A stretch of DNA of 6,641 nt, taken from a virus. Taxonomy: Duplodnaviria > Heunggongvirae > Uroviricota > Caudoviricetes. The DNA lies in the IMG/VR virus record IMGVR_UViG_2648501338_000005. One strand, written 5' to 3'. Made by a program: the position numbers and the translations under genes. The notes under the pieces were generated by a model that was not told the DNA's origin, made no database searches, and was given only the letters and a program-made list of their open reading frames with translations. Shown here piece after piece: positions 2,922-4,691 of the stretch; within the stretch, counting starts at the first letter, position 1; the number at the start of each line of letters is the position of its first letter.

Positions 2922-3869
2922 TCACTCTCCTTTGATGCGAATGCCAGCAAGCCAGTTTCTTATGCCGATATATTCAGCGTTCCTGAAACCGCTTTTTACA
3001 TATATAAATGGCAAGCGAAGATTGTGACCATTGACTGCCAGGTAGTCTTTACAACCCTGTTCGGTGAAACAGCAGGTAACGAATTCATCAATATCTTTCA
3101 CAGCAACGCGCCGCCATTTTTCTGGTGGCTCTCGAAAGTTTTCATGAAGTAGCTCGAGACGACGACTATGGCGTTTATTGGCTTCATTGCCATCTTCGTC
3201 AACCCAGACAATCCGGTCATGGTCATAATCAGCATCAACAACGATTTCGCGCTTTTGATACACACAAAACATGGGATCTGACGTTATTCGATTGTCCTGT
3301 GTTCGAATATTTTCACCGATGATGCCAAACGAATCTGGTGCAGATTTTGTCTGCATCTCTTCGATACGTTCAGCCATCGCAGCACACTCTTCAAAGTTGC
3401 TTAATGCTTTTCGCTCCCATTCGGCGCATTGTTTTTCCAGTTCTGCTATGCGCTTACTTCCATCCGCGATTACTCCCTCGTAATATTCACGCTGCTCGTT
3501 GAGTTTTGATTTTGCTGCTTCAAGCTCAACGTGCAGCTTCCCTACCGTTAGCGCAATATCCTCGTTCTCCTGGTCGCGGCGTTTGATGTATTGCTGGTTT
3601 CTTTCCCGTTCATCCAGAAGCGCCAGCGCAACATTTGGATTAAAGGCAGCAATAAATTCAGCGTTTGCGTAAGCCTGAGCATCTGTTTCAACCAGGCAGT
3701 TAACATGACATTCTGCAATCACGCCACCGGGTTCTCCTTTCCATTTTTGACAAACAAAAACTCCTGTTATATTCCCATGCTGATTGCCCGATGTATGCCC
3801 TACGATGTAGCATCCTTTAGTTGCTTTCTCTGCTGCTTCACGCAGCGCCTGATAGTCAATCTCGCTCAT
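2922..3869 (-). CDS. ead/Ea22-like modular prophage protein (315 aa)
   Basis: ATG at 3869, TGA at 2924-2922. N-terminal MSEIDYQALREAAEKATKG... resembles, from memory, the conserved N-terminus of ead/Ea22-like proteins. Central Glu/Arg/Lys-rich heptad-like region (ERERNQQYIKRRDQENEDIALTVGKLHVELEAAKSKLNEQREYYEG...) and a distinct C-terminal domain follow. Confidence 0.55.
   Translation of the reverse strand: MSEIDYQALREAAEKATKGCYIVGHTSGNQHGNITGVFVCQKWKGEPGGVIAECHVNCLVETDAQAYANAEFIAAFNPNVALALLDERERNQQYIKRRDQENEDIALTVGKLHVELEAAKSKLNEQREYYEGVIADGSKRIAELEKQCAEWERKALSNFEECAAMAERIEEMQTKSAPDSFGIIGENIRTQDNRITSDPMFCVYQKREIVVDADYDHDRIVWVDEDGNEANKRHSRRLELLHENFREPPEKWRRVAVKDIDEFVTCCFTEQGCKDYLAVNGHNLRLPFIYVKSGFRNAEYIGIRNWLAGIRIKGE
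2926..2947 (-). repeat. 22-bp leader motif, copy 1 (CTGGCATTCGCATCAAAGGAGA on minus strand)
   Basis: Lies 5 nt upstream of the ATG at 2920. Matches the copy at 4670-4691 at 21 of 22 positions with identical spacing to the start codon. Here it overlaps the last codons of the upstream ead/Ea22-like gene. Confidence 0.7.
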
Positions 3870-4042
3870 TCATCGCCCCACTCATCACAATATGCTTCGA
3901 CCGCAGTTTTCCCTGCTTCATAATCATCACGCCATGCTTCAGCATCAGCAGCACTGCCACCACGTAACTCTGCATAGTCCATTAACAGTTCATGCCATTC
4001 TTCAAAACTGACGCTGTATTTAGTTGAACCAAAATCAGCCAT
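3866..4042 (-). CDS. small highly acidic protein (58 aa)
   Basis: Not in the ORF track (under 60 aa). ATG at 4042 preceded by GAAGAGGAGG with a 6-nt spacer; its TGA (3868-3866) overlaps the ATG of the next gene (3869-3867). Translation MADFGSTKYSVSFEEWHELLMDYAELRGGSAADAEAWRDDYEAGKTAVEAYCDEWGDE has 16 D/E against 4 K/R. Confidence 0.5.
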   Translation of the reverse strand: MADFGSTKYSVSFEEWHELLMDYAELRGGSAADAEAWRDDYEAGKTAVEAYCDEWGDE

Positions 4043-4214
4043 TTTGTTCCTCCTCTTCGTCTTTTATTTCGTGATATGAGTAATTGCAGTAGTTAAAGAA
4101 AATATCTTTTGCTTCGTCATGTATTTCATCAGGCGTCTCATCATCCACTTCGAATTCATCCTCGAAATCTCCACCGGCTATTCCCGTTTCAATAATTATT
4201 TTAAACTTTCGCAT
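4035..4214 (-). CDS. small highly acidic protein (59 aa)
   Basis: Not in the ORF track. ATG at 4214 directly after an in-frame stop; its 3' end overlaps the start of the 3866..4042 ORF and carries that ORF's SD. Translation MRKFKIIIETGIAGGDFEDEFEVDDETPDEIHDEAKDIFFNYCNYSYHEIKDEEEEQNG has 20 D/E against 5 K/R. Own SD is weak and sits in a hairpin. Confidence 0.4.
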   Translation of the reverse strand: MRKFKIIIETGIAGGDFEDEFEVDDETPDEIHDEAKDIFFNYCNYSYHEIKDEEEEQNG

Positions 4215-4221
4215 TTAACTA

Positions 4222-4270
4222 CCGCCCTTTCGGGCGGCCTCCTGATGTTCTGAGGGTGCAGAAATCCCTC
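4222..4270 (-). other. two adjacent predicted RNA hairpins in an intergenic spacer
   Basis: Minus-strand hairpin 1: GGGCGG / CCGCCC stem (6 bp) with GAAA tetraloop (4222-4237). Hairpin 2: GAGGG / CCCTC stem (5 bp) with a 9-nt loop (4252-4270). They lie between the stop of gene 4308..4664 and the ATG at 4214. No U-tract follows. Confidence 0.3.
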
Positions 4271-4307
4271 CGGTTAAGGATTAAATTTTTAACAGAGCTA
4301 AATTTAA

Positions 4308-4664
4308 TTATTCAGTTCTGGATTTTGTCGCCCTGCGTATCCGCGCTTTCGCGTTACGCTCAATCTGAATTAGCTTTTCTATATTTCTCCGCCTTTCCCG
4401 TTCCTCCTGGCGCAAGATCCTTACATCATCTGCCAGTCTGGTTTCTCTTTTCGCCACAGAGAGCATCCAGTCAAATGGCTCCACAACTGCACCGCAGATT
4501 TTACAGCGGACCTGACGCTCTTTTTCGTCAACCCGAACAGAGGCGTGATGACAATATGCTCTTTCCGATGGCTCATAAAGAAAATTAACCTGATTACGTG
4601 GGTCATCCTCTTTTACCGGAAATAAAACGATATTGCTTAACTCATCTTCTGGTTTTATTTCCAT
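4308..4664 (-). CDS. hypothetical protein with Cys/His cluster and basic C-terminal helix (118 aa)
   Basis: ATG at 4664 preceded by AAGGAG (track starts earlier at a GTG at 4724); TAA at 4310-4308. Contains C-H-H ... C-x-I-C (AYCHHASVRVDEKERQVRCKICG) and an Arg/Glu-rich tail (RILRQEERERRRNIEKLIQIERNAKARIRR). Confidence 0.6.
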   Translation of the reverse strand: MEIKPEDELSNIVLFPVKEDDPRNQVNFLYEPSERAYCHHASVRVDEKERQVRCKICGAVVEPFDWMLSVAKRETRLADDVRILRQEERERRRNIEKLIQIERNAKARIRRATKSRTE

Positions 4665-4669
4665 GCTCT

Positions 4670-4691
4670 TCTCCTTTGATGTGAATGCCAG
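4670..4691 (-). repeat. 22-bp leader motif, copy 2 (CTGGCATTCACATCAAAGGAGA on minus strand)
   Basis: Lies 5 nt upstream of the ATG at 4664, in the spacer after the upstream gene's stop at 4721. 21 of 22 identical to copy 1. Confidence 0.7.

Follow-up and report, generated by a model that had tools for sequence, protein, structure and literature searches.

The window analysed here, a stretch of 6,641 nucleotides (nt) from a virus of the Caudoviricetes (IMG/VR record IMGVR_UViG_2648501338_000005), belongs to an Escherichia coli lambdoid (Rac-like) prophage and carries on its minus strand two copies of a 22-nt motif, CTGGCATTC(G/A)CATCAAAGGAGA, that are the subject of this work. Each copy ends 5 nt before the ATG of a gene, the intervening spacers being GTGAT before ATG 2920 and AGAGC before ATG 4664, and at both places the Shine-Dalgarno sequence (SD) AAGGAG stands 6 nt before the start codon. 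In the genome of E. coli C325, which holds this prophage, the PGAP annotation starts both downstream genes at these same ATGs, and it places the copy termed site 2 within the end of an ead/Ea22-like coding sequence and the copy termed site 1 in the spacer between a DUF977 gene and the gene that follows it. The features concerned are collected in Table 1.

Table 1. Features at and around the two motif copies in the window (aa, amino acids; coordinates of minus-strand features run from high to low).
Feature	Position	Strand	Remarks
DUF977 gene	5116-4721	minus	Pfam PF06163, E 3e-72; PGAP; stop overlaps GTG of ea22 stub
ea22 stub	4724-4665	minus	GTG 4724 overlaps DUF977 stop (GTGA)
Stub part: ea22 5' end (GTGAGTGA-ATTAGCTATCAGGC)	4724-4703	minus	1 nt shorter than in most relatives
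Stub part: joint	4702-4692	minus	
Stub part: ea22 3' end and spacer	4691-4665	minus	
Motif copy 1 (site 1), CTGGCATTCACATCAAAGGAGA	4691-4670	minus	CAC (R to H) variant; in 56-nt spacer after DUF977; SD at 4676-4671 for ATG 4664
Gene after site 1, 118 aa (MEIKPED...)	4664-4308	minus	phrog_1621; weak zinc-ribbon match; downstream class D0
ead/Ea22-like gene, 315 aa	3869-2922	minus	Pfam PF13935, E 2e-44; PGAP
Motif copy 2 (site 2), CTGGCATTCGCATCAAAGGAGA	2947-2926	minus	Last eight codons of the Ea22-like gene; TGA at 2924-2922
SD AAGGAG of gene at ATG 2920	2932-2927	minus	6 nt before ATG; equals Ea22 codons K-G-E
Gene after site 2, 171 aa ([11 protein letters not shown]...)	2920-2405	minus	phrog_9263; no Pfam; downstream class D1

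A preliminary description of this DNA had reported a near-identical motif at two sites, each 5 nt before an ATG, and both the coordinates and a shuffle test agree with it: with up to three mismatches allowed, the window gives two matches and 200 dinucleotide-preserving shuffles give none. A repeat finder stretches the pair to 23 nt at 96% identity (family D5), and in an alignment of 110 nt round each site the similarity is limited to the motif block. The two genes that follow had been called unrelated, and they are, one encoding the zinc-ribbon-like phrog_1621 protein and the other the phrog_9263 protein, with no kinship between them. Chance or a private duplication is ruled out as the origin of the pair by the shuffles together with the presence of the motif in hundreds of phages.

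An exact scan of IMG/VR viral contigs found the 22-mer in at least 120 contigs, and the classes of flanking sequence described below were drawn from the matches listed in that scan. A 31-mer query was made up of the motif, one base before it and GTGATATG after it. It finds a match in 479 phage records and in 2,844 of the 5,426 complete E. coli genomes, at up to 10 places per genome; the match takes in 80% or more of the query in 366 of these records and in 2,129 of these genomes. Its carriers include phage lambda, where it lies at the end of ea22, HK633, Shiga toxin (Stx) phages, P22-like elements (in the gene named 'EaA') and P1-like elements; it is no repeat private to the window. Around 33 assemblies of unrelated organisms also hold contigs identical to lambda round ea22 (L205-L249), including those of Streptomyces, Streptococcus, Prevotella, Bradyrhizobium and Piscirickettsia, with contigs of about 48.4-48.5 kb in Shewanella and Pseudomonas; these are contamination of public genomes.

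The motif can be described with high confidence as the conserved 3' end of genes of the ead/ea22 family, in which the SD of the next gene is embedded. Site 2 is read as [G]CT GGC ATT CGC ATC AAA GGA GA[G] TGA, that is, A-G-I-R-I-K-G-E followed by the stop, and among the matches listed the upstream open reading frames (ORFs) in the frame of this TGA all end in (R-A/V)-A-G-I-R-I-K-G-E, the eight-codon tail being often preceded by CGC-GCC (R-A). Eight of the ten upstream classes compared with Pfam are Ead_Ea22 proteins with unrelated C-terminal domains, among them lambda Ea22 (...HRYYGVGGQWVQDAGEYLHMMSDAGIRIKGE), whose gene ends with the exact motif in the lambda genome; the remaining two are non-Ea22 proteins, namely an HNH_3 endonuclease and a protein that is weakly Mom-like, below the cut-off of Pfam. 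In a sample of 69 ea22-family genes, picked by their coiled-coil segment and not by the motif, the exact 27-mer GCTGGCATTCGCATCAAAGGAGAGTGA forms the end of 32 genes, and 51 end within two mismatches of it. It has been reported that all Ea22 proteins end in a basic residue followed by Gly-Glu ('+GE'), a motif of unknown significance (Dydecka et al. 2020, PMC7093339), and that these proteins are mosaics of a common N-terminal and coiled-coil part with unrelated C-terminal domains (PMC10834534). The '+GE' tail follows from AAA-GGA-GAG, which is the SD of the next gene read as protein, and the published motif is thus explained as that SD within a longer conserved junction. The view that the block is conserved as nucleic acid rather than as protein, held in the preliminary description, was half right, in that the 14 nt before the SD are the codons AGIRI of ead/ea22 genes. 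Within the lambda-type allele, the unique codon changes over the eight codons are three synonymous and five non-synonymous, counts that are too small to decide between peptide and DNA.

Two further observations concern the ea22 genes and their surroundings. In lambda, no gene starts past the motif, and the stretch just after ea22 (L123, about 1290-1350) reads GGAGAGTGAGATCGGTTTTGTAAAAGATAACGC, compared with ...GTGATATGAGCAGGAATACGGGTTTGTAAAAGATAACGC in relatives; what lies between ea22 and ea8.5 in lambda is apparently all that is left of a downstream gene that has decayed. One type of Ea22 C-terminal domain has the Walker-A-like sequence GFTGCGKS (...KGEVLVVVSGFTGCGKSAIAGEIE..., in loci L029, L040 and L083), which suggests that some Ea22 variants may carry a small nucleotide-binding module.

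The embedded SD bears on the possibility that the motif acts at the RNA level, as a translational operator or as the target of a small RNA (sRNA) or RNA-binding protein common to the genes that follow. Its placement exactly over the ribosome-binding region of many genes, at fixed spacing, would suit such a site, and the 14 nt before the SD are dispensable for SD function; these 14 nt are, however, covered by the simpler coding explanation. Moreover, folding of both window sites, of the lambda site and of the bare 37-mer gave structures no more stable than those of shuffles (z +0.15 to +0.8), with the SD unpaired, no Rfam match was found at either site (E up to 1), and, as the flanks are unrelated, a conserved pairing partner cannot exist. 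A structured RNA and a known Rfam family are rejected on these grounds, and prediction of transcription signals placed neither a promoter nor a terminator at the motif. We know of no candidate sRNA or protein for it. An RNA-level site, which the preliminary description had offered in both forms, is therefore without support from folding, Rfam or flanks and is very unlikely, an sRNA target retaining some small probability.

Site 1 carries the same tail in a different setting. The preliminary description had one copy overlapping the upstream gene and the other intergenic; the overlap holds at site 2, and the apparently intergenic copy at site 1 lies in an ea22 relic. No Ead_Ea22 ORF is present there, only a stub with ends that match ea22. 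Its 5' 23-mer matches 139 genuine ea22 starts (VSEINYQALRE..., MSEIDYQALRE...) at up to six mismatches, 49 of them at two or three, and reversed-sequence controls give no match; its last ~30 nt are the ea22 end. In most relatives the sequence after DUF977 reads GTGAGTGAAATTAGCTATCAGGCTTCAATTACCGCTGGCATTCGC... and forms an intact 27-codon mini-ORF, VSEISYQASITAGIRIKGEEHGNKTRG, that ends 20 nt inside the next gene, and the stub in the window (GTGAGTGAATTAGC) is one base shorter. These comparisons indicate, with high confidence, that site 1 was left behind by an ea22 gene of which only about the first 8 and last 10 codons survive, the body having been lost. The collapse of ea22, together with the deletion of 1 nt, makes the site look intergenic, and, because the gene's ends were retained, the ribosome-binding region was preserved for the gene downstream. 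The parent of the stub would be a full-length ea22 placed immediately behind DUF977, and none was found in the loci examined. Annotators may take this as a caution: short 'intergenic' stubs of the kind seen at 4724-4665 are what is left of collapsed ea22 genes.

The same deletion closed the Ea22 frame in the window and brought GTG 4724 into frame with ATG 4664, so that a form of 138 aa appears in the ORF list. This matters for the idea, named in the preliminary description as what would refute its own reading, that translation truly starts at upstream GTG or TTG codons and that paralogous proteins have in common an N-terminal peptide, LAF(A/T)SKE..., specified by the motif. The motif is indeed always in frame with the downstream ATG (22 + 5 = 27 nt), and GTG 4724, which overlaps the stop of DUF977, does open an ORF into ATG 4664. 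Nevertheless, in most upstream contexts a stop lies within 1-20 codons and there is no consistent start, most stub copies have the GTG ORF in the frame of Ea22, the genes downstream encode unrelated proteins and PGAP starts both genes at ATGs with a canonical SD. ATG 4664 is thus favoured over GTG 4724 by PGAP and by the position of the SD, and the N-terminal peptide, which finds an in-frame start only in the window, fails in general and is scarcely credible.

Among the matches listed, about 15 unrelated upstream classes and about 22 unrelated downstream classes meet at the motif in 49 combinations and 109 distinct contexts. Between class representatives, mean pairwise identity is 0.25-0.31 upstream as far as position -11 and 0.46 at -10 to -1, rises to 0.99-1.0 in the motif, remains 0.73-0.82 at +20 to +29 (spacer and start codon) and falls to 0.24-0.35 from +30 onwards; beyond about 10 nt before the motif and about 8 nt after it, the flanks agree no better than random sequence. 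For 791 pairs with the same downstream gene and unrelated upstream sequence, the first leftward mismatch falls at -1 to -5 in 91%, and in the 318 converse pairs the first rightward mismatch falls at +22 to +32 in 95%; mosaic breakpoints therefore cluster at the edges of the motif. The start codon is found at +27 to +29 in 91-95% of the 22 downstream classes, which means that the spacing is part of the conserved junction. Class D0, the MEIKPED gene, occurs behind at least seven different upstream contexts among the matches listed. The homology of the window to phage ArgO145 and its relatives, which are the best phage matches, begins at window position 4692 (query position 1950), one base before site 1; in ArgO145 a full-length Ea22-like gene, the same long gene as in the window, ends in ...AACTGGCTTGCTGGCATTCGCATCAAAGGAGAGGAGCATGGAAATAAAACC and leads directly into the MEIKPED gene, so that both window copies represent one junction with different partners. 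The motif is thereby shown to be a sharply bounded island of identity, about 30-37 nt of it near-perfect, between almost freely combined modules; its length is 22 nt under a strict definition and 31-37 nt in common forms such as CGCGCCGCTGGCATTCGCATCAAAGGAGAGTGATATG. Among the three functions that the preliminary description had suggested, it is the recombination linker marking the boundaries of mosaic modules that fits best.

Other islands of this kind occur in the same operons. When k-mers of the ea22-centred loci were ranked as promiscuous junctions, 16-mers of the motif took second and third place, and further islands were AAAGGAGGCAACCAGTGAGCAAGATTGACTATCAGG before ea22, ATGACCACTATTACCA at gene starts and a spacer that bears hairpins. 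These islands weigh on a further alternative, in which neighbouring cassettes are moved by a site-specific system (a homing endonuclease, for instance, or a recombinase of integron-like or other type) and the motif is what that system recognises. Free-standing HNH endonuclease genes are found among the variable neighbours, one such domain is fused to the tail, and the island boundaries are very sharp; the motif, however, shows neither dyad symmetry nor an inverted repeat, it is not regularly accompanied by a dedicated recombinase, and most contexts have no endonuclease gene nearby. The presence of several different boundary islands in the same operons is better fitted by general homologous exchange than by a specific enzyme, and we regard a site-specific system as highly improbable.

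As observations in their own right, the junction before ea22 is also conserved, unrelated upstream genes ending in ...CAGCTTCGCAAAGGAGGCAACCAGTGAGCAAGATTGACTATCAGG (tail ...QLRKGGNQ-stop, with an embedded SD and a GTGA overlap), and it joins 13 x 5 flank classes (window about 3869-3900; L001 2975-3025; L124 2005-2040). Near-identical start regions (ATGACCACTATTACCA..., MTT(I/F)T(K/R/D)EQL) are found in many different operon genes, for example at window 2406-2408 (the ATG of [15 protein letters not shown]...) and in classes D2, D6, D9 and D12, and this 16-mer is a promiscuous junction of 7 x 7 flank classes. The second recurrent spacer, TAATTAAATTTAG...CCGGAGGGATTTCTGCACCCTCAGAACATCAGGAGGCCGCCCGAAAGGGCGGTAGTTAAATG, lies at window 4307-4215 on the minus strand and in L001 at about 4570-4600 and 5590-5670; it holds the hairpins GAGGG-9 nt-CCCTC (4270-4252) and CCGCCC-GAAA-GGGCGG (4237-4222), the latter between an SD-like AGGAGG and ATG 4214, which are about 23 nt apart, so that the hairpin would have to bridge the gap. 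There are 59 copies of this spacer in 204 loci, before at least four different genes, with one compensatory variant (CCACCC/GGGTGG).

A second allele of the junction is carried by P22-like phages; in P22 itself, EaD ends with GCT GGC ATC AAG GTT AAG GGG GAA TGA, or AGIKVKGE (L252 1966-1992). A scan for degenerate GIKVKGE-stop sequences retrieved 94 viral contigs (L260-L352), 85 of which share one identical 24-mer; the sequence of this P22-type allele is GCTGGCATCAAGGTTAAGGGGGAGTGA. Here, 29 upstream and 33 downstream classes occur in 60 combinations, and the breakpoints again hug the motif. The upstream proteins include Ea22-like ones, small phrog_343 proteins of the form MTSREQFEAW...WQASREAVEVELP-[variable ~30-50 aa]-AIRAAGIKVKGE without a Pfam match, and others also without one. 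The lambda-type and P22-type sequences differ at 8 of 27 nt, comprising four synonymous third-position changes, a change from R to K through three substitutions and one from I to V. There are thus at least two nucleotide alleles, each near-invariant in its own gene pool and promiscuous in its partners, and divergent members of the family have the tails DIKVKGE, NIGVKGK, NIGIKGE and GIRIKRGE. A codon-degenerate scan for GIRIKGE-stop in 185,579 species genomes, one per species, returned 47 matches, of which about 33 were lambda contamination, five were real enterobacterial prophages and about nine were due to chance. The real ones were restricted to Escherichia, Shimwellia and two mis-binned contigs of metagenome-assembled genomes, and no synonymous variant was found among the true phage matches, their codons being identical.

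The preservation of the peptide pattern in two alleles raises the question of whether the tail, (R-A)-A-G-I-R/K-I/V-K-G-E, is mainly a functional C-terminal peptide of Ea22-type accessory proteins, for example a signal for interaction, oligomerisation or turnover, its nucleotide identity reflecting only a young and well-mixed pool of E. coli prophages plus the SD, and recombination being incidental. Both alleles keep the pattern in spite of their nucleotide differences, the order hydrophobic-x-hydrophobic-K-G-acidic/basic is retained in intermediate tails (NIGVKGK, NIGIKGE and DIKVKGE, for example), a semi-conserved A-I-R-A-A stretch stands upstream of the tail, and '+GE' is common to all Ea22 proteins (PMC7093339). 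The same tail, however, ends proteins of other families (the HNH endonuclease, the Mom-like protein, the small phrog_343 proteins and others without a Pfam match), persists in the 27-codon stub and, in the window, as a frameshifted relic, and within an allele shows non-synonymous variants (G to D, R to G, R to H, A to T/P) as commonly as synonymous ones; codon choice is identical across unrelated contexts, and K-G-E is fully accounted for by the SD. The occurrence of the tail on unrelated families and on a stub without a gene, non-synonymous variation that is not depleted and identical codons argue that what is shared is probably DNA rather than a functional peptide specific to one family, and a mainly peptide role is considered unlikely, if still a possibility to be taken seriously.

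A broader and more doubtful possibility is that the tail is the right-hand handle of a dedicated architecture for the exchange of cassettes encoding hypervariable C-terminal modules of early accessory proteins (the Ea22 family and the small phrog_343 family). Such modules would have a conserved linker on either side, ...AELEAREV-LP / REAVEVELP on the left and AIRAAGI-R/K-I/V-KGE-stop-SD-start on the right. The right linker would be kept in at least two nucleotide alleles, lambda-type and P22-type, through selection for evolvability, through some hitherto unrecognised function of the peptide or of the mRNA, such as termination-reinitiation, or through both. If true, phages would have an equivalent of the exchangeable C-terminal domains found in polymorphic toxins.

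The reading that we consider probable, though well short of certain, is that lambdoid phages have in the motif a mosaic 'boundary sequence', composed of the 3'-terminal segment of the ea22 family and the translation-initiation region of the next gene, and serving as a patch for homologous exchange. The junction consists of AGIRIKGE and TGA, the SD AAGGAG, a 5-nt spacer that holds the upstream stop, and then the ATG or GTG of whichever gene follows. Since so many modules share this patch, homologous recombination, whether by phage Red, RecET or Erf or by host RecA, could cross over within it, and such an event would replace either the C-terminal domain of Ea22, to one side of the patch, or the gene that follows, to the other. 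The second arm of the exchange would be provided by the long conserved N-terminal part of Ea22 when the domain is swapped, or by another conserved junction when the downstream gene is, and each exchange would regenerate a correct stop, SD and start, so that the incoming gene would obtain a ready-made start.

Our confidence in this linker function is moderate, as crossing-over is deduced from the pattern of shared and unshared sequence, and several points count against it. RecA and Red need a minimum of about 30 bp of homology, and for RecET 5-13 bp are enough at low frequency (PMC2327257); the island, with 22 nt in its strict form and ~31-37 nt in its common forms, is at or below the length for efficient pairing. 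The motif looks more invariable than it is, since matches were retrieved by exact pattern and E. coli prophages are heavily sampled, and the linker model leaves the first gain of the tail by structurally unrelated C-terminal domains unaccounted for. AGIRIKGE and AGIKVKGE are both encoded despite the differences at 8 of 27 nt, and this similarity of peptides hints at a constraint at the protein level that the model does not need. Furthermore, the P22-type proteins show a degenerate, helix-like pattern (G-F/Y-x-x-A ... A-I-R-A-A-G-I) further upstream, so that some of the 'unrelated' upstream classes may be homologues that diverged fast.

With regard to the wider setting, the window matches the prophage of E. 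coli C325 at 100% identity, and at about 95% it matches prophages in several strains of Shiga toxin-producing E. coli. In the C325 prophage, the PGAP order of genes on the minus strand is a DnaC-like ATPase, DUF1627, DUF977, a hypothetical protein of 118 aa, DUF7167, a hypothetical protein, the ead/Ea22-like gene, a 'frameshifted' hypothetical gene, another hypothetical gene, ParDE (on the other strand) and DUF968; a Pfam search of the window proteins confirmed DUF977, DUF7167 and Ead_Ea22. The Ea22-like gene is 96-98% identical to the 'V3'-type genes of the Stx phages 1717, 2851 and WGPS4/6/8, the names of the variants, 'V3' included, being those of PMC10834534. The ATG at 2920 sits 1 nt past the Ea22 stop (TGA-T-ATG). 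According to PGAP, 2920-2742 is a frameshifted pseudogene, yet the ORF of 171 aa in the window (2405-2920, minus strand) is uninterrupted and matches phrog_9263 end to end (E 2e-123); the frameshift is really present in some relatives, for example L006. The C325 prophage encodes a large exonuclease, the gene of which runs past the edge of the examined stretch, and its annotation shows no recombinase adjoining the motif. A ParD/ParE toxin-antitoxin pair at 1294-1856 (plus strand) lies on the opposite strand amid an otherwise co-directional accessory operon and converges on a 15-nt inverted repeat (AAAGATCCCGGCTCA/TGTGTCGGGATCTTT) at 1940-1973, which could be a bidirectional terminator.

The closest known counterparts of the junction are the boundary sequences of lambdoid phages. 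As cited in PMC3029335 and PMC2327257, the proposal that short conserved boundary sequences act as sites of recombination in these phages goes back to the modular theory of Susskind & Botstein 1978, and they were documented for HK620 by Clark et al. 2001 (J Mol Biol 311:657). The present junction resembles them in being a short conserved sequence at a gene boundary, with non-homologous alternatives on both flanks and many lambdoid members, and in being placed in early accessory operons ('ea'/exo-xis, nin-like); what differs here is that its breadth has been counted (15 x 22 and 29 x 33 flank classes), that it has two alleles and that it combines a coding segment, the Ea22 tail, with a ribosome-binding site. 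HK620 gene p07 has a homologue, HK633 gp31, whose end is the exact motif, so that Clark et al. 2001 may already include GGCATTCGCATCAAAGGAGAGTGA among their boundary sequences. A literature text search for GIRIKGE, outside whose reach that paper lay, found nothing, and the papers on the P22-like genomes epsilon34 and phage L make no mention of the junction. The studies of '+GE' (PMC7093339) and of the mosaic C-terminal domains of Ea22 (PMC10834534) deal with the same genes and the same position, where a K/R-G-E end is kept despite unrelated C-terminal domains; they treat a protein motif, whereas the element described here is a longer block identical in nucleotides (AGIRIKGE and TGA) that is also found on non-Ea22 genes and on the stub.

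Judged by the placement of SD and stop in the sequence, the junction is also of the translationally coupled type. In coupled junctions, as they occur in the packed nin and ea operons of lambdoid phages, the SD lies inside the 3' end of the upstream gene and the stop overlaps or abuts the next start. The motif junction has in common with these AAGGAG 6 nt before the ATG and TGA 1 nt before it (TGA-T-ATG); its relatives show TGATG or GTGA overlaps. An ordinary coupled junction belongs to a single pair of genes, whereas this one is portable, identical in sequence and reused by dozens of pairs. A likeness of another sort is offered by polymorphic toxins, in which VENN in CdiA and PxxxxDPxGL in Rhs demarcate swappable C-terminal domains. 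There, too, homologous recombination can exchange a hypervariable C-terminal module by way of a conserved stretch beside it, but the patch described here comes after the variable domain, at the 3' end, doubles as the next ribosome-binding site, has no pairing of toxin and immunity genes and combines freely, so that it is not a member of that group. Nor is it a member of the integron attC sites, which likewise are short elements recurring at cassette borders: the motif is translated, and it is without an imperfect palindrome, integrase or attI.

In conclusion, the motif is best filed as an unusually well-populated lambdoid boundary sequence, a known concept, rather than as a new mechanism or a new kind of system. 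In the old debate on phage mosaicism, homologous exchange at short linkers (Botstein/Clark) has been set against illegitimate recombination followed by selection (Hendrix), and because most junctions are without a linker, well-populated examples of linkers are scarce. A junction that is present in lambda and in about half of the complete E. coli genomes, with dozens of partners on each side and a P22-like allele, provides a tractable test case for this debate.

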